A program made the translations under genes and the position numbers. The notes beneath the pieces were generated by a model. The model did no database searches, was not told where the DNA came from, and saw only the letters and a list, made by a program, of their open reading frames with translations. Of a DNA stretch of 64,000 nt, positions 631-45,401 are shown piece by piece. The number at the start of each line of letters is the position of its first letter. Within the stretch, counting starts at the first letter, position 1. The stretch is from a virus: the IMG/VR virus record IMGVR_UViG_3300038701_001167, positions 7,536 to 71,535 of that record, one strand, 5' to 3'.

Positions 631-950
631 CAAGGACATCCTTTTGAAACAGTGTTGGGGTGTTTGGACACGTCTTGGACATCGAAAGTTTCGGGTTGTG
701 GAACCACGAGTTGCATGTTCAGACAGGCCATGTTGTTTGCTTCTCCGTATTTGACATGACGTAGAATGATGAACCGAGCGAACTGACTTGGCCGACAAAT
801 GACTTGGAGGTCTTTGTCCCTGTTTGCGAGAACCAAGAGATGTGATCGATCGAGACCGAATACTTCGACAAGGCAATCAATGTACGCTTCACGCTTGAGG
901 TAACGTTCTGAAACTGTGAAGTGGACTCGATCATGAGACATTTTGGACAT
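630..950 (-). CDS. hypothetical protein (106 aa)
   Basis: ORF track; packed in the minus-strand operon. Confidence 0.65.
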   Translation of the reverse strand: MSKMSHDRVHFTVSERYLKREAYIDCLVEVFGLDRSHLLVLANRDKDLQVICRPSQFARFIILRHVKYGEANNMACLNMQLVVPQPETFDVQDVSKHPNTVSKGCP

Positions 951-3923: not shown

Positions 3924-3998
3924 TTACAGTGCTGAGAGGATGGGTGTGATGACAGCGAAGAGGATCATCCAGAAGGCGCAAGTGATGTAAAGTTTCAT
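3924..3998 (-). CDS. small hydrophobic peptide (24 aa)
   Basis: MKLYITCAFWMILFAVITPILSAL; same CTGAACCA-ATG initiation context as its neighbours. Confidence 0.45.
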   Translation of the reverse strand: MKLYITCAFWMILFAVITPILSAL

Positions 3999-4033
3999 TG
4001 GTTCAGTCTTTCTCTATCAGGTTGAAGTAAGAA

Positions 4034-6696: not shown

Positions 6697-7851
6697 ATGC
6701 AAACCAATGATATCTTGAGAGAGCAGGCGACTTGTCTTGCTTTGAAAGAGCAAGGTCACACACGTGCAGAGATTGCCGAAGCAACAGGGCTCAGTTTTGC
6801 TCAAGTTGCTCGGCGTCTCAGCGGAGCAGCTAAAGCCGCTCGCCTCGACCCATCACTCAAACATAGGCTAGAGGAGAAGGGGATTACGGACTTTGCCGGA
6901 CTGCATTCAGGCTGGCTACTTGAAAAGGATCAATATGGTTCCGGATCCTCCCTCTATTTCTACCTCGGGCCAGACGAAGAAAAGATCGACTTTGTTGATG
7001 CCCTGACAGAAGTCCTTTCTGACATTACCAAACTACCGCCAATCCCTGAACCAGCTTACAGTGTTGCCACCCAAGATTATTGCAACTGGCTCTTTCTGGC
7101 TGATCTACACATTGGTGGGGATTACGGAGACAGTCGTCAGACTGAAGATTTCATTGTCTGTATTGATGATTTGGTACGCCGTATGCCACTGGCTCAGAAA
7201 GCAGTGCTGTGTGAGCTGGGTGATCTTCTGGATGCCAATGACCATAAGGGTGTCACACCAGCGTCAGGCAACCCCACAGACACAATCCGCGATGGCCATC
7301 TACAAAATACGATGGAGGCTATCCGGCTGCTGAAATACGCATCCTATCGGTTGCTGGAAAAGCATGAAGAAGTCGAGCTTCACCTGATCCGAGGGAACCA
7401 TGATGAGACTGCCTTCTACGCAGTTCTCTTGGCTCTCCAAGAACACTTCCGGGAAAATCCCCGTCTGAAGGTGTTCGTACCTACCTGCCCTGAAGAAGAA
7501 GAGTTCCGTGTGATCTCTTGGGGCAACTGTGCCTTCCTGCCTCACCATGGTGACAAGGCAAAGCCTGAAGGTCTGAAGGAAGTCTTCACTGATCAGTTCC
7601 CTGACGAGTTTGCCGCGGCGAAAGCCTACCGGCTTATCGCCACTGGCCACCTTCACAATCTGAAAGTCCAAAGCCTGGGAGCGGTAGAGCACCGCCAGTT
7701 CAGCACAATCCACCGTCCCAATCGCTGGGCTCGGATGAAGGGTTTTTTCAACCATGGCCGACTCTCAGTCCTCACCGTCCACAAGACCTTGGGTCTGCAG
7801 GACGAAACCATGTCGAACATCACACCAATGCTGCGGGGAAAAGTCCAATGA
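6697..7851 (+). CDS. N-terminal HTH fused to a calcineurin-like metallophosphoesterase
   Basis: HTH-like GHTRAEIAEATGLSFAQVARRL; motifs ADLHIG, GDLLD, RGNHD, HHGD, GHLH. Confidence 0.8.
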   Translation: MQTNDILREQATCLALKEQGHTRAEIAEATGLSFAQVARRLSGAAKAARLDPSLKHRLEEKGITDFAGLHSGWLLEKDQYGSGSSLYFYLGPDEEKIDFVDALTEVLSDITKLPPIPEPAYSVATQDYCNWLFLADLHIGGDYGDSRQTEDFIVCIDDLVRRMPLAQKAVLCELGDLLDANDHKGVTPASGNPTDTIRDGHLQNTMEAIRLLKYASYRLLEKHEEVELHLIRGNHDETAFYAVLLALQEHFRENPRLKVFVPTCPEEEEFRVISWGNCAFLPHHGDKAKPEGLKEVFTDQFPDEFAAAKAYRLIATGHLHNLKVQSLGAVEHRQFSTIHRPNRWARMKGFFNHGRLSVLTVHKTLGLQDETMSNITPMLRGKVQ

Positions 7852-31501: not shown

Positions 31502-34500
31502 ATGTCCGGCATCGATCTCAACTTTGGAAACCAACCCAAAGTGAACCAAACCAAATCAAATCAAAAGCAGGCACAGGTGGAAGACACCTCACTCGCCAAG
31601 AAGCTTCAGTTTGGTTCTCAGCAGGATCAGTGGGCTCTGGCTACAGCCATGCAGAATGGCAATGCCATTTCCCAAGATGAGTTCATGCGAGACATGACCA
31701 ATGCCAGCGACACAGATATCGCTGCAAAATATGGCTTTGAGGTGGTTCAGAATCGTGCCGGATACCTTCAACAGTATCGTGATCTGGAAGCCTTCAAGCA
31801 AAGCTCAGGTGAGCCAGTAGACATTGCAAACGATACCGCAGTGTCTGTTACCAAAGGAGCTATGAACACAGCTGGAGCCATGGGATCGATCGCTGCCTCT
31901 GCATGGGATGCCGTAACAGCCGGTCCTCGTGCTCTGGGTGAGCAAATTCATGGCCAGGCTCAGACACCTCTGAGTGAGGTTGCTGCAGAAGGATTGAACT
32001 GGGCCAATGAAGCAGTAGACGGACTGAAGTCGGATCGGTCTGTTGAGATGCGGAACCAGTTTGCTTTGGAACAATCCCTGGATCAGCAAGATCGGGATGC
32101 AGAATTCGAAGCTGGCGAGACCAAAGGGTTCGTGGATCAGGCCATCACTGAAGCCAAGAAGTTTGGTGACACAATCGCAAACCTTGCTGACAATCCGTAT
32201 ACGGCAATGGAAACTGTTGCTGAAGGTATTGGCTCACTTGGCCCAATAGCAAAGACCATTCAAGGTCTGGCTCGTGCAAACACAGCTCGAAAGCTTGTTG
32301 CCGAAGGAATGACCAAAAAAGAAGCTCGTGATCTGATACAAAGGGATGCTGGTCAGGCACTGGTTCAAGAAGAAGCTCTTCGTCTGGTACCCACAGTTAC
32401 TGCTCTCACTGAAGGTGGAAGTGCTGGTCTTCAGGCTCGTCAAGAAATTCTGGCCATGTCCGAAGAAGAGCTGATGCAGTCTCCTGAATATCAGAAGATG
32501 ATTGAGGACGGGATGGATCCGGATCAGGCACGATCCAAACTCATCGAGATGGCAGGCCGCCCTGCAGAACTGACTGGTGCCACTCTCGGTTTGTTGACAG
32601 GTCGTATCAGCAGAGCGTTCGAAGCCTCTCCCGGTAAGGTTGGTTCCGGCGCTGGTGCAGGCAAGACAGTGGCTCTGGAGACCGGTGAAGAAGCTCTACA
32701 AGAAGCCTCGAACCAAGCTGCCTCGAATGTGGGTGTGAATGCTGCAGGCTTTGAACGTGAGATCACAGATGGACTTGGTGAAGCAGCTGCCATGGGTGCC
32801 GCAGGTGGATTGGGAACAGCCGGTGTCATGCAGGCGCCTGGAGCAGCAGCCACAGCCGTTGTTGAGACAGCCAAGGCCACAGGTCGAGCAGCAGAAGCCG
32901 GGTTCAAAGCTCGTATGAATTCTATCGAGCAGGCAACTGATGATGCCAGCCCAGTTGGTCAGAAAGCCGTTTCTGGAACCAGTGAGCAGATGCGCAAGGA
33001 TGCAGCTGTGATCTCTGAAGTGGCAGCAAATGAAACCACACCAGAGCAAATCAAAGCACTTGATACCAAAGTACAGGAAGCCCTGTATCTGCCAGATGAA
33101 GATGCTGACAGCTACATCGAGAGCTTGCCTGCTCTGGCTCAAGTGAAAGAGTCCACCGGGAAAGTCGATCGATACTCGCTCATCAACGAAGTCTCTCCGA
33201 TCATCACCAATGAAGAAATCGCTCCGGTAGATCGTCTGGGAGCAGCTGTGCTTGTGATGGAGTCCTTCGATGCACTCCGGTCGCTGGACAATGATGAGAG
33301 CAATGCACTGGTTCAGTCATTGGAAGCTGGAGATCAGACTGGTTCTCGCTTTGGTCGACTAAAGAAAGACGTGAACAAGCTGACGTCTTCTCCGGCAGTG
33401 AAGCGTGCTGAAGAGATCATCCGTACTCTTGAGCCTGAGATGATCAATGCAGTGTTTCCTCTTACTGAGAATGCTGATGCTGCAACTCTGCAGGCCTACC
33501 GTACAATCAGCCGGTACAATACTCTGGCCATCGATGAGAGCCAGTATGACATGGTTCTGGAACAGGTGAGTGAGAACGACGCTCTTCGAAAGGAGTTCAC
33601 TGCAGGCAAAGAAGCTCGCAAGATCTTCGACGAGGCTGACAAAGCAAAAGCGTCTCTCTCAGAAGAGGTAGGTGGTTCCTACAACACCAAGTCCATGGTG
33701 CGTGAACAGATCTTGTCTACCGGCAACAAGAACAATGACATGCCATCGATTGTGGAACATTACCGCAATGTGATGGATAACATGGCCATTGGTCGTAAAG
33801 AAGAAGCAGCCGCAGCACTGGTTGAATTGCGTGAGTTTGCGCAGTCCCAAGTGAACAAGACCGTTGCATTCAACACAGCTGCAGATACTGGCGTGACCAA
33901 TGCAGCAGACGGTATTGGCTATGAAGCTTACGGACCGTTCAAGAATTACTTCCGCAAAGAGGGCGGAGCCTGGTTCAACAAGAACTCTCCCAACTCTGTT
34001 GCTCTGGCTCGTGATGTCCATGTGGACACAACAGCAGTGGCAAACACATACAACACTCTGGCTGAGATTTATCCCGAACTGGTGAGCAACGGTGAGACTC
34101 GGATTGATGTTCCTGAGCTGAGTCAGATAATCACCGAATCCAAATCTGCACCGATTGAGACCGATCCAGTTGAGCCTGAAAAGGCAGAACGTCGTATTCG
34201 TAAAGACGCAAAGCCGGATGCTTCTTTGACAGATGCAGTCACACCGGAAGGGCAGGCTGTTAAAGATGCTGTGACGAAAAAGGCAAAAGCTCAGAAGCGT
34301 ACCACAGCAAAGCAAACCACACCCAAACCAACCAAGTCAGAACCAGTCAAAGCAGAGGAGCCGGTCGAAAGCACCACGAAGGTGGAGGCAGAGCCGGAAC
34401 CTGAAGTGATTGCTGAAGACAAGGCGGATGTGGAAGAGTTGATCTCTGAAGCAGACACCATTGCCGAAGTCGAAGAGACACCTGAGACAGAACAAAAGTC

Positions 34501-37500
34501 TCTGGCAGATGTGTTCCCGAACCTCATCAAAGAGAACGGAAACAACTGGTTCCTCAAGACCTTCAGCCGTCGTGAAAATGGCTCCAAGTTTCTAGATCAA
34601 GACAGCCCTATGGAAACCCTGTTGCGTGAAGTGACCGGGCTCAATGCAGAGCAGTCCAATGAACTGAAGACCCTCAAAGATGTTCTGGCTCCGAAGCTCC
34701 AGGAGTATCTGGATGGGATGGCCAAAGACGGATTGCTCAATCCGAAGATGGGCTGGCTCAAGAGCCTGATGGAAGGAACCAAGGACGTTCTGGGATACAA
34801 GAACGCTTCCTCACTCAACTTCCGCAGCACAGTCGATGGGAAAGGTCAGTTTGATCCGAAAGTGATCGAAGCCTTCACCATGGCTGTTGGGGAATGGATG
34901 CTGAAATCTGAAGCGCGTTTGCCGCGGCAACTGGACAATGAAGAGATCAATAAGCGGTTCGGCCGCAACCGTGATCATGCCGTCACTGACTTTGAACGTC
35001 AGCTGGTGAACCTTGGTGGTATCCAGCTTCAGTCAGTGATCGATGACATCAGTGGTTCCGCCATGAAACTGATGGGCGTCACAGCTGACAAGTCTCAGCC
35101 GGTGAAGTTCTCTCAAGGTATCTTCCGGGGTATGGCTGCCAACGTGCTGGAAGCTCTGGCTGATAGTGAAGGTGCCGACTGGATTGGGATCACCCAGTAT
35201 GACTATGACGTGAATGGCTCCAAGCGGACCTACACCTCGATCCAACTCAACAAGGATGTGGATGCGGTCAAAGACTTCACTCAAGCACTAAAAGGCCGAC
35301 AGGACCTGTTTGAAAAGGTGTTCTTGGAAGCGCCAGAAGCAGATTACTTCTTTGAGCCAATTCAAGAGACACCTCGCTCTGTCACACGTCAGCGGTTCAA
35401 TGAAGTTCAGCCGATTGCCGAGAAGGTTATCAAACGGCTCCAAAGCACACCAAACCGCTTTGTAGCACCGATGATGGAATTTCGTAGTGCTTTGGGAGAT
35501 GACGTGTTCAAGCGTCTGGCAGGGTTCCGTGACTTCGATCCGAAGACCACAAATGAAGCGCATGCTACCAGCATTCAGTCCAAGAACCGGTCCATTGAAC
35601 GGGCTCTGGATGGGATCGATCAGCACTATGCTCGTGCAGAAGCCTATGCGGCAGAGCAGGGCAAGACAGCTGAGCAGACTGATCTGTTCTTCAAGTGGAA
35701 CATTTCGAGCGTGGGACGTCTTCAGCAGGAAGGGTACATCACACCTCAGGGTGACAAGATTGCCCGTGAAATGATCTCTTCCACCATGTCGACACTGGAT
35801 CTCAACAATGAGAACCATGTGAAAGCGATCTGGCTCGCTGCAGCACAGGCATTTGATATCAAGCCTGGTATCGAGAAGCAGTCACATGAAAAGTCTGTTC
35901 GGGACATTCAGGAACTCTTCAACGGTGATCTGAAGCCAGCCATGGAGCTGGTCAAAGACTGGATGATCTCTGGTGAGATGACAGATGCCGATGCACTGGA
36001 AGCAGCTTTGATCAACTCTGGTGCAGACATCTCTATGAAATCTGTTCACGCTCTGTTGACCGTGGCCCAGATGGAATACGTGCTTGAAAATGACCCAGAA
36101 GGTGCAGGAATTTTCCAAACATCTTTGGCTCTTGAAGCGGACGGCAAGACTGATGGTCCGATTAATGCGATGATCAACGTGGGCTTTGGACAATTCACAC
36201 CCCATCAAATCAAAGTAATGGCCAAGGGTGGTCTGATCGTCTCTGGTTCAGAGATGAGCCTGAACCGGTACATCGAAGGCGATGCAGAACACACAGGGGA
36301 CAAAGAAGACCTCTACGAAGTGGCTGCACAGAGCCTGGAACGGAACCTGGGATCGTACACAGCTGAGAATGCTCCGGTGATCTTTGACCTGATGGACACA
36401 TTCCTGAAAGGTTTTTCCTTCAAAGACGGCAAGCTCGACATTGGCCGGAACCTGATCAAGAACCCTCTGACGGTGTTGCTCTATGGTTCGGGCAAAGCAG
36501 GTATCGCATCCAAGCTGGCGTCTGCCATCAAAGACGAACTGCATGCGTTGATGAGTGACATCGCTGAGTCCGGTAAGCCGTGGCATCAGCATCCGAAGTT
36601 CATTGAGAACCCGGCTCTGGTTGATACCCTGAAAGCTGTGTTTGGGAACCAGATCATTTCACTGCTGGAAAACCCAATCAAATCCAAGATCGAGGGACCT
36701 CTTGAGAAAGCTCTGAGTGGTCAGATCGACGAGACGATAGGGGAAGCCCTTGTAGAAGCGATCGACGAAGCCACAGGTGGCCTGCGTGAAGCCATGGAGC
36801 TTGTTCGGACTGCAACCCAGATCCAAGGAATTGCTTTCGAGGATGCCTATGACAAGGCCATCGAGCGTATCCGGACCGAGAAAGGTCTCAAGAAGAGCCA
36901 GCTGAGTGAGAAGGATTACGAGACAGCTTTCGTGGAAGCATCTCAAGTGGCTCCGATCTACAACAACGGTGCTCAGGAATTCCACATCGTTGCATCTGAG
37001 AAATACTCCAGCGAGAACCAGATCTCATCTTCGTTGCGGGAACGGTTGTCCAGTGGTGCCACTATTCCGAAGCCTGGTGCCGTGGGTGTGAAGGGTCAGC
37101 CTTATCTGGTGATTGGTACTGGTGATGGTAGGATGATCATCAACATCCTTGAAGCCGGCGATGCAGATATGGACCGGACACTGATGGTGTTCGATGGTGT
37201 GGAAATTGCTCTCGACAACGTCTTCAGTGCATCCCGTCAGATCAACCAAGCTGTCTGGAAAGGATGGCAGGAAGAGAGCGTGACCACATTGGTTCACGAT
37301 GGCTATCAGAACTTCCTGCGTCAGTTCAAACCCGATGAGTTGGGTGAGAAAGGCAAAGAAGCGCTCAACAAGCTGGCCAAGTCCAACAAGACTGGTGTGG
37401 ACAATCTGATCTCTGGTGTTGGTTCCCAACTGCAAGCTAAGTCGGCTCAGAACCTGGCTCGTAAGAAAGCCCTGTCCAAAGTCCAAGCCTACATCGATCA

Positions 37501-40500
37501 CATGGCCGGTGCCGAAGCGCCTCATATGAATGAAGGTGAAGTGGTTGAAAGTTCTGTTCCGTTTGATCCTGAGCTGATCGCTGAGAAGCTGAACCAGTTC
37601 TATCAAGAAGCTTTGGAAGAAGCTCGGGAAGGTATTCGAACAGAGCGTCGTGCAGCTACTATTCAGGCGCCGAGTGCCAAGCTGATGAACCAGCTCAAGA
37701 AGATCGGTGAGCAGGTAGAAGGAACAGAAGCGGTCAAGCTTACTGGTTCCCAACTGACACAAGACGTCTTCAAGATGAGCAACGATGCAAGTCGTGAGCA
37801 GAACTCTGTGTTCTGGAAGCTGCTGTCTGAGCAAGACAGTCTTGCAGATTACACCTTCTATGTCGGTGAACAGGCTGACCTGGAAGACATCCGGTCTGAT
37901 CTGGGAATTGACTCCTCGGTGAGCATCAAAGCCGGTGCCATGTATCCGAAGAACAAAGTAGTGTTCATTGCCAATGCGTCTCCGGAAACACTGCTGCATG
38001 AAGCTCTGCACACACAGACGGCTCGGACATTGGTCGATCACTATGCGGACCCGGAGAACAGTGCTGACTATGTGGCAGATGCCATTGGCCGGTTGGAGAA
38101 CCTCAAAGACTTCTTCATGAACATGAGCTTCACCAAAGACACGGCTGAAGATCGGGCAGCCAATCTGTTGAAGGAACAGCTCACAGAGAAGGCGAATGAT
38201 CCAGCTGCTGCAATGTCAGAGTTCATCTCTTGGACTTTGTCGAACCAGAAGCTGATCAAGATTGGTCAGGACACCAAGGTCTACTCTCCACTGCAGAATG
38301 TCGGCCGCAAGGTACTGGCTCTGTTGGGTCGTCTATTGGGGATCAAAACTCGACCGGGCAAAACCCTGTTTGAGAAGGTCCGTTTCAACAGCGAGATCAT
38401 CATCAAGAGCCAAGACAAAGGCAGCAACAATCTCGATCTGCTCAAGCAAGAAGCCGAAACACAAGCTGTGTTTGAACAGGCTTACGGAGAAGATACCAAT
38501 CTGGATCGTCTGGAGAGCAAGTTCCAGCGTCGGATCCAGTCTGCATTGGAAGCGGCTGTCCGTCGTGTAGATGATCCGATGAGCACAGAGAGCGATAGCT
38601 CCGTGGTCAAGCGGGCAGGGGACCTCACTGCTATGGCCGAGAAAGCGGCTGAGCAAGTCGAGAGCTTTGGGTTTGCAATGAACCAGCGTGAGAAGGCTGT
38701 ATTCATGAGCATTCACACAGGCATGATGACGGATTTTGAAAGCAATCCGGCTGCACAGCGCAAAGCCTATGAGCTCTACTCTCACATGCTGAAGAATGCC
38801 AAGCCCGGATCACTGAGTGTGTTGGCCGGCAAAGGTGGATTGCGACAAACCAGTGAAGGTCAGACAGACCTGCTGGCAACCTTTGTGGCATTGGGCATGG
38901 TTCATCCTGGCTTCAAAGCTGAGCTTGCTGAGATGGACGGACCCAAGAACATGGTCGAGTATGAGCGCAGTGTAGATGGCACCCTGAGATGGTTGGCCAA
39001 CAGCTCGATCAACTATCTGACTCAGTCTGCCATTGCGATGAAGAAGTCCGGCAAGAAGATGGACACTCAACTTCTGGCTCTGGAAAACGCTCTGTCGACC
39101 TATCAAGTAGAGCGCCGTCATACAGCTGACCGGATTGCGATGAAGCCTCAGGAAGTGCTCGATCAGAAACTGTCTGTTCTTCTGGATCGTGGTTCCAAGA
39201 AGGCAGTGGCTTTCCTACGGTCCAAACAAAAGCCCACAGATGGTGTGCTCAAGTCTGGTGCTTTCGTCAGTGCTGAACTGATTGCAGCTATGGGATCGAA
39301 AGAGAGCATGGAAGATGTGGGCAATGGCCTGACCTACATGCTTAATGAGCTTGAGCCCTTCAAAGCTCTGCAAGAAATCTGGACCGATCTGCAGGGTGTG
39401 ACCAAATCCAATGCAGCTGTGATGGATCTGGTCAACAAGGTGAAGAGCCATGTCGATGCCATGCGTCAGGATTACCGGGAGAAGATCCCTCAAATCCTGT
39501 CCGAGAAGTTCACTCGCAAGATCACCCGTGATGAGTGGACACAGATGTTCGAGGGCATCTCTCAGACCGATCTGACCACATTGGGTAACAAGCAGGCTCT
39601 GACCCTGCTGAAAGACCTGACCCAACTGCCTGTGAAGATCAAACGAGCAGAGGCACTGGTTTCCGAATTGGCAAGCAACAACGGGACCCTTTACAAGAAG
39701 AAAGCCAACGCACTTGCACACTGGATGGTCAACAAGGAAGCCATCTCAACCAATCTGCTACGTAATGCAGAAGCCATCGCCAATCTCTACGGTGAAGGTG
39801 TTCAGGTTGGTTCTGAAATCACACCCGATCTGATCGAAGCCATTGACGATCTGACAACCCTCTATGCGTTGGACAAGGTGAGCCAAGAGACCAAGGACAC
39901 ATTGCAGGACTTGGCCAATACCGCAGAGGAAGGCCTGAAGTTCATCATTGGGTATCAGGCTTCTACCAAAGGTCTGGAGCTACAGCGTATTGCTGATGGA
40001 GAAGATGGGGCTGTGTCTCGGATCAACGGCTGGAAAGGCTATGCTCCTGTGACGGCTGCTGCTGGCAACTCGTTGGTTGTTCGAGACGACGTAGACTTCA
40101 AAGAGATGGTGAAACTCGGTTACGAACGTGTTGGTGACTACGAAGGAGATGCTCAGGAGAACTACCGTGGCAGCCGTGGATATTACCAGTCCACAGTGGG
40201 TGGTCGGTCTGCATATCGTCAGGGTGTAGCTCAGACTGTTCATGCTACGTTCCAAGGTGTTGATCCTCGAACTGGTGTGTCTCGGACAGGTGAGATGGCA
40301 GGGTTCATCTCCGGTCGGAAAGCTGAACTGGCAAAGAGAGCCAAGAAGCGAGTGAACAACGATCTGGCACCGGGCAATGGTGAAGTCATGGTTCCTGTCT
40401 ATGGCGCCAATGGAGACATCACCGGGTATGAGCTGACCATGGACCCCAAGCGTCGGGAAGCGTTGCAGGAAGACAAGCACATGGCTCGGATGCTCGGTGC

Positions 40501-41791
40501 CTGGTCTGGCCGTATCGTGGAAGAAACCATGTCGGATCGCTACAACAAGACCTTGGTTCAAACCCTGAAAGCTCAGTGGGATGAAGCAAGCCCTGAAGAG
40601 CGTCGGACCCAGTTCACCAATGTGGCGGATCCCAAGCACAAAGATGCTGTCATTCGAGATGCTTGGAACACCATGGGTTTCGGGATCAAAGATGCTGCTC
40701 GTGATGTGTTCAATGAGAGTGATACTCTCATGGTTCGCAAAGATCTGGTGAATGATGCACTGGGCTTCCACCAAGCGTCTGTCCGGGATGCCTTCACAGG
40801 AACGTCTCGTTGGTCTCCTGAGACACAGCAAGCTTTGGTGACGGCTGCTACAGCTGTCATGGGCAAGGATGCCTATAAGTACATGGTCAAAGCTGAAGAC
40901 GGAATTGGTGATCTGGTGTCCTATGCCAAGACCACAATCGTGGTTCGATCGATGACTGTGATCTGGGAGAACTTGCTGTCCAACAACCTGCACCTGCTGA
41001 CATGGGGTGTAGGACCGGTAGAGCTGGTCAAGGCACAGAGAGCCAAGTTCATTGAGATCAATCAGTATGTAAAGAACCAGGAGCGTATTCTGGAACTGAA
41101 CGCTGAACTGGCAGCCAACATCGAAAATGCAAGCAAAGCTCGTCGGATCACTGCTGAGTTGCGAATGCTCGATGATGCCAATCAGAAGCTGAGCATTCGT
41201 CCTCTGCTGGAAGCCGGTGAATTCTCAACAGTCTCTGAGAGCCTCACTGAAGCCGATCAGGCCATTCGGGAAGGGAAGCTCAGTGACTTCTTTGAGAAGG
41301 CTGCTGACAGGCTGCCTGGTGGCGTGCAGACAGCATTCAAGAACTTTGCCATCACCAAAGACACTGCATTGTTCCAAGGTCTCAACCGGGCTGTCCAGTA
41401 TGGGGACTTTGTGTCCAAGGCTGTGCTCTACGATCACCTGACAAAAGTGAAAGGCAAGACCGAAGCTGAAGCGATGGATGTGATCAAGGAAGAGTTCGTG
41501 AACTATAACCGCCTGTCTGGTCGAGATCGGGATTACCTGGAAAGCACAGGCATGCTCTGGTTCATGAACTATAAGATCCGGATCATGAAGATCATGGCTC
41601 GGATGGTACGTGAACGGCCAGCCTCCGCTCTGTTCTATGCTGGTGGGGTAGGTCCGATGGCAGACATTGACACAGTTGTAACTGGTTCAGGTCTGGGGGC
41701 TTATCTCGACAATCGCCTCGGATACGCGATTGGGCCTGAAATGGGTGTAAACGGGATCTTCATGAACCCGTGGAATAGCTTGGTGAACTGA
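31502..41791 (+). CDS. virion-encapsidated RNA polymerase (N4 gp50 homolog)
   Basis: 3,429 aa; SSVGRLQ, motif A EADGKTDGPINA, motif B RNLIKNPLTVLLYGSG, motif C VFDG; LLHEALH zincin-like motif; no Cys seen on reading. Confidence 0.97.
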   Translation: MSGIDLNFGNQPKVNQTKSNQKQAQVEDTSLAKKLQFGSQQDQWALATAMQNGNAISQDEFMRDMTNASDTDIAAKYGFEVVQNRAGYLQQYRDLEAFKQSSGEPVDIANDTAVSVTKGAMNTAGAMGSIAASAWDAVTAGPRALGEQIHGQAQTPLSEVAAEGLNWANEAVDGLKSDRSVEMRNQFALEQSLDQQDRDAEFEAGETKGFVDQAITEAKKFGDTIANLADNPYTAMETVAEGIGSLGPIAKTIQGLARANTARKLVAEGMTKKEARDLIQRDAGQALVQEEALRLVPTVTALTEGGSAGLQARQEILAMSEEELMQSPEYQKMIEDGMDPDQARSKLIEMAGRPAELTGATLGLLTGRISRAFEASPGKVGSGAGAGKTVALETGEEALQEASNQAASNVGVNAAGFEREITDGLGEAAAMGAAGGLGTAGVMQAPGAAATAVVETAKATGRAAEAGFKARMNSIEQATDDASPVGQKAVSGTSEQMRKDAAVISEVAANETTPEQIKALDTKVQEALYLPDEDADSYIESLPALAQVKESTGKVDRYSLINEVSPIITNEEIAPVDRLGAAVLVMESFDALRSLDNDESNALVQSLEAGDQTGSRFGRLKKDVNKLTSSPAVKRAEEIIRTLEPEMINAVFPLTENADAATLQAYRTISRYNTLAIDESQYDMVLEQVSENDALRKEFTAGKEARKIFDEADKAKASLSEEVGGSYNTKSMVREQILSTGNKNNDMPSIVEHYRNVMDNMAIGRKEEAAAALVELREFAQSQVNKTVAFNTAADTGVTNAADGIGYEAYGPFKNYFRKEGGAWFNKNSPNSVALARDVHVDTTAVANTYNTLAEIYPELVSNGETRIDVPELSQIITESKSAPIETDPVEPEKAERRIRKDAKPDASLTDAVTPEGQAVKDAVTKKAKAQKRTTAKQTTPKPTKSEPVKAEEPVESTTKVEAEPEPEVIAEDKADVEELISEADTIAEVEETPETEQKSLADVFPNLIKENGNNWFLKTFSRRENGSKFLDQDSPMETLLREVTGLNAEQSNELKTLKDVLAPKLQEYLDGMAKDGLLNPKMGWLKSLMEGTKDVLGYKNASSLNFRSTVDGKGQFDPKVIEAFTMAVGEWMLKSEARLPRQLDNEEINKRFGRNRDHAVTDFERQLVNLGGIQLQSVIDDISGSAMKLMGVTADKSQPVKFSQGIFRGMAANVLEALADSEGADWIGITQYDYDVNGSKRTYTSIQLNKDVDAVKDFTQALKGRQDLFEKVFLEAPEADYFFEPIQETPRSVTRQRFNEVQPIAEKVIKRLQSTPNRFVAPMMEFRSALGDDVFKRLAGFRDFDPKTTNEAHATSIQSKNRSIERALDGIDQHYARAEAYAAEQGKTAEQTDLFFKWNISSVGRLQQEGYITPQGDKIAREMISSTMSTLDLNNENHVKAIWLAAAQAFDIKPGIEKQSHEKSVRDIQELFNGDLKPAMELVKDWMISGEMTDADALEAALINSGADISMKSVHALLTVAQMEYVLENDPEGAGIFQTSLALEADGKTDGPINAMINVGFGQFTPHQIKVMAKGGLIVSGSEMSLNRYIEGDAEHTGDKEDLYEVAAQSLERNLGSYTAENAPVIFDLMDTFLKGFSFKDGKLDIGRNLIKNPLTVLLYGSGKAGIASKLASAIKDELHALMSDIAESGKPWHQHPKFIENPALVDTLKAVFGNQIISLLENPIKSKIEGPLEKALSGQIDETIGEALVEAIDEATGGLREAMELVRTATQIQGIAFEDAYDKAIERIRTEKGLKKSQLSEKDYETAFVEASQVAPIYNNGAQEFHIVASEKYSSENQISSSLRERLSSGATIPKPGAVGVKGQPYLVIGTGDGRMIINILEAGDADMDRTLMVFDGVEIALDNVFSASRQINQAVWKGWQEESVTTLVHDGYQNFLRQFKPDELGEKGKEALNKLAKSNKTGVDNLISGVGSQLQAKSAQNLARKKALSKVQAYIDHMAGAEAPHMNEGEVVESSVPFDPELIAEKLNQFYQEALEEAREGIRTERRAATIQAPSAKLMNQLKKIGEQVEGTEAVKLTGSQLTQDVFKMSNDASREQNSVFWKLLSEQDSLADYTFYVGEQADLEDIRSDLGIDSSVSIKAGAMYPKNKVVFIANASPETLLHEALHTQTARTLVDHYADPENSADYVADAIGRLENLKDFFMNMSFTKDTAEDRAANLLKEQLTEKANDPAAAMSEFISWTLSNQKLIKIGQDTKVYSPLQNVGRKVLALLGRLLGIKTRPGKTLFEKVRFNSEIIIKSQDKGSNNLDLLKQEAETQAVFEQAYGEDTNLDRLESKFQRRIQSALEAAVRRVDDPMSTESDSSVVKRAGDLTAMAEKAAEQVESFGFAMNQREKAVFMSIHTGMMTDFESNPAAQRKAYELYSHMLKNAKPGSLSVLAGKGGLRQTSEGQTDLLATFVALGMVHPGFKAELAEMDGPKNMVEYERSVDGTLRWLANSSINYLTQSAIAMKKSGKKMDTQLLALENALSTYQVERRHTADRIAMKPQEVLDQKLSVLLDRGSKKAVAFLRSKQKPTDGVLKSGAFVSAELIAAMGSKESMEDVGNGLTYMLNELEPFKALQEIWTDLQGVTKSNAAVMDLVNKVKSHVDAMRQDYREKIPQILSEKFTRKITRDEWTQMFEGISQTDLTTLGNKQALTLLKDLTQLPVKIKRAEALVSELASNNGTLYKKKANALAHWMVNKEAISTNLLRNAEAIANLYGEGVQVGSEITPDLIEAIDDLTTLYALDKVSQETKDTLQDLANTAEEGLKFIIGYQASTKGLELQRIADGEDGAVSRINGWKGYAPVTAAAGNSLVVRDDVDFKEMVKLGYERVGDYEGDAQENYRGSRGYYQSTVGGRSAYRQGVAQTVHATFQGVDPRTGVSRTGEMAGFISGRKAELAKRAKKRVNNDLAPGNGEVMVPVYGANGDITGYELTMDPKRREALQEDKHMARMLGAWSGRIVEETMSDRYNKTLVQTLKAQWDEASPEERRTQFTNVADPKHKDAVIRDAWNTMGFGIKDAARDVFNESDTLMVRKDLVNDALGFHQASVRDAFTGTSRWSPETQQALVTAATAVMGKDAYKYMVKAEDGIGDLVSYAKTTIVVRSMTVIWENLLSNNLHLLTWGVGPVELVKAQRAKFIEINQYVKNQERILELNAELAANIENASKARRITAELRMLDDANQKLSIRPLLEAGEFSTVSESLTEADQAIREGKLSDFFEKAADRLPGGVQTAFKNFAITKDTALFQGLNRAVQYGDFVSKAVLYDHLTKVKGKTEAEAMDVIKEEFVNYNRLSGRDRDYLESTGMLWFMNYKIRIMKIMARMVRERPASALFYAGGVGPMADIDTVVTGSGLGAYLDNRLGYAIGPEMGVNGIFMNPWNSLVN

Positions 41792-42003: not shown

Positions 42004-42321
42004 TCAATCACCTGACTGCTCCTTAGATTCAATGAAAGTCATCACGCGGCGCTCAAACTCAGCTTGTGCCGCAGCCATGGCGCTATCCACATCGGGATAG
42101 GTATGATCTTTCATTCCGATATTAAGCGTGACGCCCAATTTACGTTTCACGCGAGGGTCAACAATCTTTGTGATGTTAAAGTCGCTTGCCAAGAACCGTG
42201 GGGCGGCACTCCAATGCTCACTCGACGGTACAGACTTGCGCTCTGTGCGGTCGTCGTTCCAAACATCAACTGTCAAAATGTCGTGCGACCATTGCAGTTT
42301 TTTGACCTGAACGTCAGTCAT
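42004..42321 (-). CDS. hypothetical protein (105 aa)
   Basis: GGAGGG RBS before MTDVQ. Confidence 0.6.
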   Translation of the reverse strand: MTDVQVKKLQWSHDILTVDVWNDDRTERKSVPSSEHWSAAPRFLASDFNITKIVDPRVKRKLGVTLNIGMKDHTYPDVDSAMAAAQAEFERRVMTFIESKEQSGD

Positions 42322-42338
42322 CTCTGGCCCTCCTTGGT

Positions 42339-42674
42339 TCAAACTGGTGCGTGGTGCATGGTCACACCTTCGCTATGGGCAACATATGCCTCAGCTTCTT
42401 CCTGAGAGAAGAGGCCAGCTTTCAGATGTGTGCCGGTGTAGCCTTTGGCTCCAGGACGGAAGTAATAGCCGTTCTTGCGAAGAAAGAATTTGTTGCCGGG
42501 ATTGTATTTGGCCTTGAGTGTATCTTCATAACCATGCCACGCGATTCCAGCGTTAATGAGAGCTTCAGCCTGGGTGTTTCCAAGTCCAGAGTGACCTGGA
42601 CCATCATTGATGACACAGAGCCATTTGTGTCCGTAGACATGACCGTCAAGAAATTTGATTGTTGGAGTATTCAT
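42339..42674 (-). CDS. hypothetical protein (111 aa)
   Basis: AAAGGA RBS. Confidence 0.65.
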   Translation of the reverse strand: MNTPTIKFLDGHVYGHKWLCVINDGPGHSGLGNTQAEALINAGIAWHGYEDTLKAKYNPGNKFFLRKNGYYFRPGAKGYTGTHLKAGLFSQEEAEAYVAHSEGVTMHHAPV

Positions 42675-42686
42675 GGTGGTTCCTTT

Positions 42687-42944
42687 TTATTGAACCGCTT
42701 CAATCACTTGTTCGATGAAGTAAGCACAAGCAGTCCATTGTTGTTCAGTATCGAATGATCTGTCACGAAGGAAGGAAACACATCTTTCAAGAGAGGGCTG
42801 GTTAATCCTCCAAGAAATTTGAGATTTTCCTAAGTTCATGTAGGTATCCATGGCCATTTGAGTGATGCCAATAAAGCCAACAACAGCACCAAAAAGAAAG
42901 CCTAACCCAAGACCAATCAGTGTGAATATAGAAGGTTCTTTCAT
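42687..42944 (-). CDS. N-terminal TM protein (85 aa)
   Basis: MKEPSIFTLIGLGLGFLFGAVVGFIGI; AAAGG RBS. Confidence 0.6.
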   Translation of the reverse strand: MKEPSIFTLIGLGLGFLFGAVVGFIGITQMAMDTYMNLGKSQISWRINQPSLERCVSFLRDRSFDTEQQWTACAYFIEQVIEAVQ

Positions 42945-42964
42945 AGTTTTGATACCTTTTTCTG

Positions 42965-43478
42965 ATGTCCGATAATACAAGATTATTGGACATATAAGTG
43001 TGGTGAAGGGTGGGGCGCTTTCATACTTAATTGAACCAATAAAGCGCCATGACAGCTTTCTGTGGGGCCTGAGTCTGCCAAGGTGTATCGGCACCAAGGG
43101 ATCGCTCTCCGATAAGAACCGGCCCTCCACGGACCGCTCAGGCTACCCAGAAAACTGTCATGGAAACAAAAGACTGAATGAAAGTGCAGGCTCACATTGA
43201 GCTATCTCCAACCTCCGCGGTTAGCGGGTTAAGCAGGTAATGGGTCTCAGTGGTACGTGCATGATATCCTACACGTTCTTAAGAGCACCTTCCCTCGCAA
43301 CCAGATCCACCTCCGTCGAGGTCGTCATCATCCGGTTCACAGTTCCCTACTGCACATTTATTTAGTCTTGGGGTTACTTACATTGGTTAAGGGTCATACG
43401 TGTGAAGCATCGACGCTTACTCCAGTTTTCCCCCTCGTGTGGTTAGTGTTGATTTTCACATCTTCAGTGTGACCGGCT
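42965..43478 (-). ncRNA. candidate large structured non-coding RNA of unknown class
   Basis: Gap of over 500 nt with no convincing ORF, tiled by consecutive helices (see findings). Confidence 0.45.
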
Positions 43479-43505
43479 GGGCTCCCCTCTATTTGAGGGG
43501 AGTCC
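43479..43505 (-). terminator. stem-loop after the 43514 gene
   Basis: GGGCTCCCCTC-TATTT-GAGGGGAGTCC. Confidence 0.6.
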
Positions 43506-43513
43506 TACCTGGT

Positions 43514-43702
43514 TCAACCAAGTGGATCGTTTGAATCATTGGGCGTTTTATCGGTGACGCCTTGATAACAAATCGATCCGATGAGTAGCAGACCGGCGAT
43601 AGCACCGATCTGCACAATGATCATCCAAGCCATCGAGAGCACGTTTGAAACGAGCAACCCGATGACGAGGAGATAAAGACCGATGACTGTTTTCCAGAGC
43701 AC
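43514..43702 (-). CDS. small 2-TM membrane protein (62 aa)
   Basis: Two hydrophobic helices. Confidence 0.6.
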   Translation of the reverse strand: MLWKTVIGLYLLVIGLLVSNVLSMAWMIIVQIGAIAGLLLIGSICYQGVTDKTPNDSNDPLG

Positions 43703-43708
43703 AGCTGA

Positions 43709-44158
43709 TTAGCTGGCCTTGGAGAAGATCGACTTGCCACCAGCAGGCTTCGAAGCGGAAGCTTCAGCTTTGCCACCGAAGATCGATTTGCCCGAAGTGG
43801 ATTCTGCCGGAGCTTCATCTTCTTCTGAGGTCTCGGGTTCAGTGCTGTCGGTGCCAACATCCGGTTCAGCTTCTTCTTCTGCTTCTTCCGGCTGAGCTTC
43901 AGTCTCAGGGGTCGGTTCCGGTTCAGCAGCAGGAGCAGGAGTGTTTTTTACTGCTTTCGGTGCAGTCCGGGTCGGTGCCGATTCAGGAGCAGCAACGGGA
44001 GCTGCAGACCGGATATCGATTGCAGCTGTGAGACCATTGGGTCCACGGCCAGCGGTGAAATCGATCGAGAACTTTTGGCCTTCTGCGATGTTGATCTGGC
44101 TGTGCAGATACATTTCAACGGCCGAGTTGATCTCGTCTTGGTTCAGTGTGATTTGCAT
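43709..44158 (-). CDS. N4-family conserved protein with a low-complexity acidic linker
   Basis: MQITLNQDEI..AVE.YL...I...FTAGRG..GLTA.IDI N-terminus, recalled from N4-like phages at this position. Confidence 0.7.
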   Translation of the reverse strand: MQITLNQDEINSAVEMYLHSQINIAEGQKFSIDFTAGRGPNGLTAAIDIRSAAPVAAPESAPTRTAPKAVKNTPAPAAEPEPTPETEAQPEEAEEEAEPDVGTDSTEPETSEEDEAPAESTSGKSIFGGKAEASASKPAGGKSIFSKAS

Positions 44159-44184
44159 GTGTTTTTCTTTCTTATTAGAATAGG

Positions 44185-44652
44185 TTAGAGAAGTTTCTCT
44201 TTGCCGTAGAGAGCCAACAAAGCAGCTTCGGCTCGTCCATCATCCTTCTTTCGGGAGAACAGATCAGCATTGGCTGGAAAGCGTTCAGAGGCAAGTTTGC
44301 GTGAACCATCTTTGTCTTTTCCAAGCTTGAAGTGCTTCTTCCAAACATTGGGTGTGGGATTGTGGAACTCATGACCATGGCCGATCAGAGCCATTCGGAG
44401 AGCTCCGTAACAATCACCGAAGCGGAATGCGCTGGAGATGCCTTGACCTTGGAAAGCCCAGACTTTTTCCAGTACAGCCATGCTCCTTGGTTCATCCGAA
44501 GACAGGAGCGTTCCTACCATGTGGCAGTTCAGTTCTGTCTTCGAATTGGAACCAGGCAAGATCGGCATGTCATGGACCTCAAGCGCCCATGTGTCGGAGT
44601 TCAGTAGAGCGATTGCTCCACTGAATCCTGGGTCTATGCCGATGATGAGCAT
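44185..44652 (-). CDS. RuvC-like Holliday junction resolvase
   Basis: IIGIDPG..GAIA, VLEKV, WKK, DGRAEAALLA. Confidence 0.85.
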   Translation of the reverse strand: MLIIGIDPGFSGAIALLNSDTWALEVHDMPILPGSNSKTELNCHMVGTLLSSDEPRSMAVLEKVWAFQGQGISSAFRFGDCYGALRMALIGHGHEFHNPTPNVWKKHFKLGKDKDGSRKLASERFPANADLFSRKKDDGRAEAALLALYGKEKLL

Positions 44653-45401
44653 CAGCCGAAGAGTTTCTTCTTCGGAGTGGCTTCACCGGAAGTGCCTGCA
44701 GAACCAGGTGTACCGGTTCCTGAAGTGCCTGCACCGCCACCTTCAATGACTTGGAACTTGTTCAGATCTTTGTCACCGAAACGGTTGGTCCATTCAGTCA
44801 TCCAGACCGGATCTTCGATCTCCTGCATGTACTCGTTCACAGTGCGGGAAGTTTCCGGGTGCATGAACTTCACGATCTCGTTGATGGTACGAGACTCGTT
44901 GATCGGTTCATAGCGACCACTGTTGGTGTCTTTCTGGGTTTTGTTCTCGATCTTACGGAACAGGGCAACTTTGACCGGCTGACCGAGCATCGCAGTGATA
45001 ACAGGAACTTCGGTCGGGACTTCACCCTGAGCTTCCTTGTTGTAGATTTTGACCATCTTGTTTTCCATCTCGACTTCAGCGAGGTGGGTTTCAGTGGTCA
45101 GCAAGCAGAGCTCATCAATGGTGGTGAAGCCCGGCATCGGACGACGGGTCTTGTTGTCGTTTTTGTCGATGTAGAAGTTTTCACCAGTCTTTTTGGTAAC
45201 ATAGACGGTTTCACGGACTTCCTTGCCACCGACGTCGAGGATCAGGGAGACGCCCTTGGCTCCACCAGCAGAAGTGATGGCATATGCCAGCTTGACGATT
45301 GCATCATAGACGCCTGTGGGAATCGGATCGAAGTTGCCGCCACCGACGACGTCTTCTGCTTTTTCCATACCTTCAGTGGTGAGATTGGAAAACATACTCA
45401 T
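44652..45401 (-). CDS. single-stranded DNA-binding protein (N4 gp45 homolog)
   Basis: Synteny; MPGF..I..LCLL; C-terminal KKKLFG. Confidence 0.85.
   Translation of the reverse strand: MSMFSNLTTEGMEKAEDVVGGGNFDPIPTGVYDAIVKLAYAITSAGGAKGVSLILDVGGKEVRETVYVTKKTGENFYIDKNDNKTRRPMPGFTTIDELCLLTTETHLAEVEMENKMVKIYNKEAQGEVPTEVPVITAMLGQPVKVALFRKIENKTQKDTNSGRYEPINESRTINEIVKFMHPETSRTVNEYMQEIEDPVWMTEWTNRFGDKDLNKFQVIEGGGAGTSGTGTPGSAGTSGEATPKKKLFG

Follow-up and report, generated by a model that had tools for sequence, protein, structure and literature searches.

A gene-free gap in the genome of an N4-like phage holds a member of a wider phage RNA family with a probably tRNA-derived core

What occupies more than 500 nucleotides (nt) of helix-rich, gene-free DNA in an otherwise gene-dense phage genome? 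This question is raised by the gap 42948-43513 in a 64,000-nt stretch (hereafter, the window) that constitutes most of a 72,475-bp virus record in the IMG/VR database, IMGVR_UViG_3300038701_001167 (positions 7,536 to 71,535), and belongs to an N4-like phage. A preliminary description, made from the letters alone, named a series of helices, all of which are found in the sequence, and took the region for one large non-coding RNA of about 540 nt or a structural element of single-stranded DNA (ssDNA). We find, instead, that the gap is a modular row of separate units on the minus strand, not one 540-nt RNA, and sequence comparison supports the assignment of the core of this row (43170-43369) to a wider family of phage RNAs that is not catalogued in Rfam. 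That the region is structured is apparent already from its folding energy. Compared with dinucleotide shuffles (z scores), the segment 42950-43520 folds far better on both the plus strand (-219.2 kcal/mol, z -6.4) and the minus strand (-201.6 kcal/mol, z -4.75), and in neither case did any shuffle reach the observed value.

The core was captured in a covariance model, R1, built from six sequences; given that the window's own sequence is among these six, independent support comes from the 18 other members found afterwards. R1 has a sole match in the window (43182-43357, minus strand; 143.7 bits, E 5e-38, model positions 1-172), and its closing helix P1 reaches 43170/43369, with 17 of the 20 pairs of the extended helix forming on the minus strand. 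The window core matches the model over its full length, including all five of its conserved helices and both motifs, GCUUA and CC-GYGGA-GG. Read from the 5' end, it starts with P1, U-A, a 4-bp D-like stem, and A, followed by the hairpins P2 and P3, the latter variable, which are inserted in the D-loop. GCUUA then leads into the second strand of the D-like stem; after a single G come the arm CUAACC-GCGGA-GGUUGG, the letters AGAUA, and a T-like hairpin, and P1 is completed by its 3' strand. The most variable helix in the family alignment is helix 5, and P3, judging from its divergence between close relatives, appears to act as a swappable tip of the core. No repeats of the core RNA were found elsewhere in the genome.

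Homologs of the core were recovered at very different evolutionary distances. The closest relative is a sister N4-like phage represented by one IMG/VR contig (L002, also listed as L019 and L022), in which the neighbouring genes are 87-95% identical in DNA and the segment 43170-43520 is retained together with both small hairpins of the gap; because the two genomes are about 90% alike throughout, this pair alone says little on selection. When the gap was compared by blastn with 50,697 phage records, nothing was matched; with a wider 3.6-kb query, similarity to N4-like phages of Erwinia and Pseudomonas was found, limited to the SSB gene. Two 159-kb phage records, those of Stenotrophomonas phages IME-SM1 and Moby, share a 20-nt word with the core; in both, the copy is a helix-closed non-coding unit of about 200 nt that lies directly after tRNA-Gly in a tRNA cluster, on the tRNA strand. 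Given this orientation, the sense strand of the window element is the minus strand, in agreement with the count of G-U wobbles in the preliminary description, which had favoured the same strand. Two other Stenotrophomonas phages of the Menderavirus group, Mendera and Bhz51, carry variants with compensatory changes, likewise next to tRNA-Gly on its downstream side, and a degenerate pattern led to a 105-kb viral contig with the RNA directly after tRNA-Thr. R1 accepted 8 true members among 74 pattern matches in metagenomes; all 23 matches of a 24-nt pattern in a collection of bacterial genomes were rejected by the model as local chance similarities. A second, independent pattern, drawn from another part of the RNA (GCUUA ... 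CCGNGGAGG), yielded 22 more viral contigs, all confirmed by R1 at 55-126 bits, most of them prophage-type records with 57-65% G+C. These contigs correspond to 14 temperate phages of Pseudomonas aeruginosa, including Ab31 and YA3, and the Pseudomonas phage copies score 55-77 bits. The Ab31 copy, which is unannotated, has the same strand as the genes around it and lies in an island without genes in the early operon, with the repressor genes on one side and bet/exo, which serve in recombination, on the other.

The distribution is narrower than this list might imply. No RNA copy was present at 16 more distant N4-like loci, found via the neighbouring 149-residue protein, so that the RNA is not a general N4-like feature; among 151 sampled genomes of one gammaproteobacterial order, none carried a whole copy and a single partial match was seen. 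On these comparisons, the RNA appears to be not a host gene but a sporadic accessory gene of phages. The preliminary description's suspicion of novelty holds: Rfam 15, with its riboswitches, ribozymes, tmRNA, RNase P, 6S, Y RNA-like, GOLLD, ROOL, and other families, gave no match in the window at gathering thresholds, and relaxing the limit to E 10 brought up nothing but noise (BTH_s39 on the module 43047-43163, at 13 bits against a threshold of 77). Rfam scans over the RNA in IME-SM1 and six prophage-type loci were equally without a match, and a full-text search of the literature found no description of the RNA family.

The predicted helices are borne out by covariation. In the alignment of 24 members (an earlier set comprised 14), 91.7% of the cells are paired in standard fashion, compared to 31-47% with slid partners, and changes on both sides occur in 30 of the 37 pairs. 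The covariation score of 0.566 contrasts with 0.07-0.10 in the slid controls and was reached by none of 500 shuffles. For instance, in the arm CCANCC-GYGGA-GGNUGG, the fourth stem pair (N) is seen as A-U, G-C, U-A, and C-G. The members from temperate phages, which were found without the P2 motif, have a different P2 yet retain all helices. Two of the tests named in the preliminary description, comparison with shuffles and covariation among homologs, thus speak for a genuine structured non-coding RNA, and we hold it highly probable that the core represents a real RNA family read from the minus strand. Two readings of the UGAUGA internal loop were considered and rejected: a k-turn or box C/D motif, given that half of the members have G at the essential A and the temperate-phage members lack the motif, and a hammerhead, for which C3 and the GAAA element are absent.

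What kind of RNA is this? The order of the conserved columns points to transfer RNA (tRNA). In the 24 members, P1 is followed by U (23/24), R (24/24), and a 4-bp stem that starts with G (24/24), then by A (22/24) and G/C-U-G-U, before the hairpins P2 and P3. GCUU (24/24) and A (22/24) stand directly before the 3' strand of the D-like stem, after which come R (23/24) and a 6-bp arm with the loop GYGGA; finally, A-G-R-U-N precedes a T-like hairpin of 4-5 bp and the 3' strand of P1. The consensus structure has four stems round one junction, as in the cloverleaf. The tRNA core positions U8, A14, A21, R9, R26, and G10 are matched by U in 23, A in 22, A in 22, R in 24, R in 23, and G in 24 of the 24 members, respectively, with the equivalence of columns set by position in the fold and not by a three-dimensional test. 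Further likenesses to tRNA (RF00005) are the four-way cloverleaf with its 4-bp D-like stem and 5-6 bp anticodon-like stem, the 5-nt variable loop of AGGUC type, and the T-like stem stacked on the closing helix. When R1 was run unfiltered on the tRNA cluster of phage T4, the best match was tRNA-Pro (8.7 bits, E 0.013), with tRNA-Arg and tRNA-Thr also near the top of the ranking; the acceptor, D, anticodon, and T stems of tRNA-Pro fell onto P1, Px, helix 6, and helix 7, respectively, with a 101-position insertion deleted. This stem-for-stem alignment supports the tRNA-scaffold reading, and we consider derivation of the core scaffold from a tRNA to be probable.

The RNA also departs from tRNA in several features, among them those needed for decoding. 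Unlike in tRNA, the closing helix is up to 20 bp long. In the place of a D-loop of 7-11 nt with GG there are about 100 nt folded into two hairpins; the T-like loops have 3-7 nt (AAUGU, GUUGU, UAGU, AUAAGUA) instead of the 7-nt UUCRA T-loop; and the anticodon-like loop is not a 7-nt loop with U33 and a variable anticodon but G-Y-G-G-A, closed by an invariant C-G pair and with G at the U33 position in 23/24. The family members have neither a CCA end nor a discriminator pattern. Without a T-loop, U33, and CCA, the RNA cannot decode. Thus, the core is tRNA-like in shape, yet no member of the tRNA family. Were the arm read as a 7-nt loop, Y-G-G would come to lie at the anticodon positions, as in tRNA-Pro, and this resemblance is a candidate lead.

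Several known RNAs invite comparison. The species 1 and 2 RNAs of T4 (rnaC and rnaD) are likewise non-tRNA RNAs, stable and located at the end of a phage tRNA cluster, they are cut from a tRNA precursor, and rnaC ends in a tRNA-like T-arm. However, they are shorter (119 and 139 nt), and kinship was rejected because unfiltered R1 gave no more than 0.5 bits on rnaC and 0.9 bits on the opposite strand of rnaD, with no match in sequence or structure. The YrlA-type Y RNAs of bacteria and phages are non-decoding tRNA mimics, substrates of tRNA-processing enzymes that are bound to Ro/Rsr; the stem that binds Ro is made by pairing of their 5' and 3' ends and replaces the anticodon arm, and their T-arm is a true one. 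In the present family, by contrast, it is the acceptor-like helix that the ends make up, no T-loop remains, there is no Rfam match, and no Ro-like gene is seen nearby. GOLLD and ROOL are phage-borne as well, often adjoin tRNA genes, and have not been assigned a function, but they are 3-4 times larger, lack a tRNA-like scaffold, and their Rfam models find no match here.

The genomic setting bears on how such an RNA could be made. Menderavirus and five tRNA arrays have the RNA where a tRNA would stand, on the tRNA strand, with spacers of 0-16 nt; in the loci L100, L077, and L126, it directly adjoins the tRNA before or after it. The N4-like and temperate phages have it in an early or middle operon, either inside or at the end. 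Its tRNA-like placement in the arrays, flush with the neighbouring genes, would make release by tRNA-processing enzymes the most likely route, although, taken by itself, maturation by this machinery strikes us as evenly balanced between yes and no. In the array phages, RNase P would cut at the 5' boundary of the following tRNA and perhaps also at that of the RNA itself, with 3' trimming completing the process; in the window phage, the RNA would be cut out of the operon transcript. A weak hint of expression comes from a 567-nt estuary metatranscriptome contig of a relative, which has about 89% identity to 43173-43732; it breaks off where the 3' strand of P1 ends, whereas a DNA contig from another run extends further. 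The exact phage was not found as RNA in runs X1-X12, and in metatranscriptome run X9 the neighbouring genes were covered and the RNA was not. Two of the array loci hold further tRNA-like pieces. Between tRNA-His and the RNA, L126 has a 41-nt piece (~734-774, minus strand) resembling the 3' half of a tRNA (T-arm and acceptor strand), which may be a remnant of array rearrangement. In L056, the segment 2372-2798 (plus strand), from tRNA-Val to the RNA, contains two stretches with the T-arm-like motifs GGTTCAATTCC and GGTTCGAGTCC that were not called by ARAGORN and may be further tRNA-like RNAs.

How far does the structure extend beyond the core? The most stable piece of the gap is the module 43047-43163 (minus strand, -64.7 kcal/mol, z -7.2; plus strand, -57.1 kcal/mol, z -5.1), one hairpin of which has the same CC-GUGGA-GG loop as the anticodon-like arm of the core. 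This module is entirely absent from the sister phage, as are three small minus-strand genes next to it; in consequence, the sister's RNA copy faces the terminus of the polymerase gene. A DNA contig from run X3 does have the module, at about 93% identity and with 311 other letters separating it from the core; the 8 differences include one compensatory pair (43106/43117), where G-C replaces A-U. Searches found no homolog of the module beyond close relatives, so far as sequence goes marking it as apparently lineage-specific. The pattern of presence, absence, and insertion among close relatives fits a slot for interchangeable RNA cassettes. On the other side of the core, the 5' stretch 43370-43513 is 90% identical between the window and the sister phage, not above the neighbouring genes, and special conservation of this stretch was ruled out given that the two phages are 87-95% identical across the whole neighbourhood; searches gave no homologs beyond close relatives, and the window-sister pair appears to lend the stretch no independent support. 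Within 43388-43476, the plus strand has a long hairpin that the sister has not preserved (z ~0 on both strands). The single large RNA initially proposed does not, therefore, survive: only the core of about 190 nt has homologs with covariation. As for the small hairpins, one similar to 42965-42993 occurs in the sister phage, where it adjoins the end of the convergent virion RNA polymerase gene, and one similar to 43014-43048 is found at the equivalent place, without a U-run. The GC-rich hairpin 43479-43505, which had been described as terminator-like, is real and kept in both phages, but it has no U-run on either strand and was not listed by the terminator scan; in the gap as a whole, promoter and terminator scans yielded nothing beyond chance level.

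Taking these lines of evidence together, the best overall explanation, which we judge somewhat more probable than its negation, is a modular minus-strand RNA locus with a tRNA-derived core, tRNA-type maturation, and action in trans as a mimic. According to this scenario, the gap would be read on the minus strand along with the replication-gene operon that ends there, and the core would encode a stable, structured RNA some 175-200 nt long. Its tRNA ancestor would have lost the T-loop, U33, and the CCA end and gained the two D-loop hairpins of about 100 nt. The mature tRNA mimic would tie up or draw away some factor, of the host or of the phage, that recognizes the shape of tRNA, with the invariant CC-GYGGA-GG arm and the D-loop insertion as specific contact surfaces. 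Action as a mimic or decoy in trans, the least certain part, is advanced tentatively, falling short of an even chance; it is favoured by the inability to decode, the retained tRNA core, the invariant surfaces, and the location among phage tRNAs and early accessory genes. Phage tRNA genes have been proposed or shown to counter host defences that cleave tRNAs (PMC10264068, PMC11555353), and a counter-defence or host-takeover role possibly fits the genomic location of the RNA. A bolder version, possible but rather doubtful, is that a mobile family of tRNA-derived RNAs neutralizes a tRNA-recognizing host enzyme as a counter-defence or takeover factor, with the loci serving as slots for payload cassettes. 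Candidate targets would be anticodon nucleases and other toxins that attack tRNA, or else an enzyme that binds tRNA by way of G35-G36, as present in tRNA-Pro; horizontal transfer would have carried the family among lytic N4-like, large tRNA-rich, and temperate Pseudomonas phages.

A number of observations weigh against this explanation or its parts. The whole gap is more stable when folded as the plus strand than as the minus strand, and two pairs in the outer part of P1 in the window are G-U as plus strand but A-C mismatches as minus strand. Fitting of the alignments to the structure of the model biases them in favour of that structure, and, given that the first search pattern fixed the P2 hairpin motif, the invariance of P2 in the 14 members is partly a matter of ascertainment. 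Models of tRNA miss the RNA: ARAGORN calls no tRNA or transfer-messenger RNA (tmRNA) gene in the gap and does not detect the RNA at the other loci, and RF00005 has no match in the region at E up to 10. To this extent, the preliminary description was right in seeing no tRNA; the resemblance that escaped it lies in the scaffold. In the sister phage, the RNA is at the very end of the operon, a position explained equally well by protection of the 3' end in cis. A shared partner protein near the RNA was sought, and only HNH homing endonucleases emerged, at three loci. Finally, the 567-nt contig from an RNA library may be DNA carry-over, and its source is a relative, not the window phage.

The main rival accordingly assigns the tRNA-shaped fold a role in cis, as cleavage punctuation for RNase P or RNase E or as a protector of operon 3' ends, with no job after release. 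Such a role would suit the placement of the RNA inside operons on the gene strand in the window phage and Ab31, the copy of the sister phage at the operon 3' end facing the convergent polymerase gene, and the termination of the RNA-library contig at the 3' end of P1. It is less apt for tight tRNA arrays, which need no added punctuation because tRNAs already flank the RNA, and a mere cleavage signal would not need an insertion and a GYGGA arm that are conserved in sequence across very different phages. On balance, a purely cis-acting element appears unlikely, albeit worth serious consideration. The many invariant nucleotides in junctions and loops, the complex multi-helix junction, and the proximity to tRNAs that is familiar from GOLLD and ROOL might, alternatively, betray a ribozyme or an RNA that assembles into a multimeric particle, as large ornate phage RNAs do. 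We deem this decidedly unlikely: neither a known ribozyme nor an ornate RNA is matched in Rfam, the RNA is 3-4 times smaller than ROOL or GOLLD, and nothing points to a cleavage site.

The anticodon-like arm has a further possible meaning. GGA in a hairpin loop closed by C-G resembles the sites of CsrA and RsmE, and GGAGG is the Shine-Dalgarno core, so that the invariant C-GYGGA-G hairpin, of which the module 43047-43163 has a second copy, could act as a sponge for a CsrA/RsmA-type protein or as an anti-Shine-Dalgarno bait. Yet the hairpin is single in most members, its loop falls one nucleotide short of the usual ANGGAN and begins with G, not A, and the rest of the scaffold is left unexplained, which makes this alternative improbable. 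A DNA-level element (an origin, an ssDNA structure, an insertion resembling a miniature inverted-repeat transposable element (MITE), or the target of a homing endonuclease) might be read from the somewhat better folding of the window plus strand, the HNH homing endonuclease genes within 1 kb of the RNA in three lineages, and the presence or absence of the module among close relatives. However, the orientation agrees everywhere with that of the tRNAs or flanking genes, G-U pairs are retained on one strand only (being C-A mismatches on the other), compensatory changes preserve RNA helices, and there are no repeats inside the genome, so that the ssDNA element of the preliminary description, and any other of this kind, must be considered very improbable. 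Least credible of all is a small protein-coding ORF, an explanation that the preliminary description had named as one that would refute its own reading: ORFs of 41-71 codons exist on both strands of the gap (ORF list), but they gave no match in Pfam and PHROG scans, their frames are disrupted in the sister phage by 1- and 4-nt indels and the loss of 43047-43163, substitutions relative to the sister are clustered in blocks and not at third positions, and the high-GC homologs conserve helices, not a reading frame.

Table 1. Features of the gene-free gap, its flanking genes, and homing endonuclease genes near the RNA in related loci. Positions refer to the window unless a contig is named.
Feature	Position	Strand	Remarks
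Downstream flanking gene, 86 aa, ATG at 42947	42687-42947	minus	First of three small genes; no family
Hairpin TGTCCGATAAT/ATTATTGGACA	42965-42993	unassigned	-8.6 kcal/mol, z -2.4; just upstream of the 86-aa minus-strand ORF
Hairpin GGCGCTTT/AAAGCGCC	43014-43048	unassigned	-13.4 kcal/mol, z -2.9
Second structured module	43047-43163	minus	18-bp and 7-bp helices closing three hairpins
Core RNA domain	43170-43369	minus	AAGACT..GTGCAG / CTGCAC..AGTCTT closing helix; z -2.4 alone
Variable P3 hairpin	43236-43297	minus	Inside core; no detectable similarity to L002/L019, flanks 92-97% identical
Stretch between stop of 62-aa gene and core RNA	43370-43513	minus	Contains GC-rich hairpin 43479-43505
Upstream flanking gene, 62 aa	43514-43702	minus, same orientation as RNA	ORF list; conserved in sister phage L002
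Homing endonuclease genes	L002:5425-5970; L137:8468-8986; L145:12417-12893	plus (L002)	Sister phage and two temperate-phage lineages

The surroundings of the gap place the RNA among replication genes. The phage is classed as N4-like on the strength of a 3,429-residue ORF on the plus strand (31502-41791), the virion RNA polymerase gene, which converges on the gap, and an N4-type SSB gene on the minus strand (44652-45401; PHROG 743, E 7e-65). To the right of the gap, all on the minus strand, lie the SSB gene, a Holliday-junction resolvase gene (44185-44652), a gene for a protein of 149 residues, and the 62-residue gene, which has no Pfam or PHROG match. To the left are the three small minus-strand genes (42004-42947), followed by the end of the convergent polymerase gene. 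The products of these three genes (112, 111, and 86 residues) belong to no credible family. In the ORF of the 149-residue protein (43709-44158), the segment 43733-43896 is replaced by some 90-104 unrelated letters in contigs of relatives from three runs, and the sister phage's version of the protein is only 69% identical; given the swapped segment and this low identity, the gene has a hypervariable middle. Among runs X1-X12, the best DNA matches to the region 42600-44200 are algae-associated metagenomes, and relatives that share parts of it come from runs of estuary and marine samples, pointing to a marine host for the phage.

Other loci of the family offered two further observations. Genes for homing endonucleases with HNH_3 and AP2 domains (PHROG 99, E ~1e-57) are situated within 1 kb of the RNA in three lineages; the window itself carries no such gene. 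These nearby HNH homing endonucleases may help to explain the spread of the RNA. The temperate-phage contig L145 encodes a Proteo-phage-1 RNA (RF03044, 85 bits; 3926-4004, minus strand) about 9 kb from the RNA, and such temperate phages thus carry several structured RNA genes.

The tRNA arrays of phages are now viewed as weapons against host enzymes that cut tRNAs, whereas the non-tRNA RNAs that accompany these arrays, from the species 1 and 2 RNAs of T4 onwards, still lack an assigned function. The family delineated here is useful in this respect: it has a clear, if not certain, origin in a tRNA with a remodelled elbow, strong support from covariation, and carriers that are easily grown, namely, Stenotrophomonas phages Moby and IME-SM1 and P. 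aeruginosa phages Ab31 and YA3, a combination that makes the role of such RNAs directly testable. For genome annotation, the family accounts for a recurrent structured gap, devoid of genes, in several groups of phages. With respect to phage evolution, it exemplifies the movement of an RNA gene, and not of protein genes alone, between phages of very different types.

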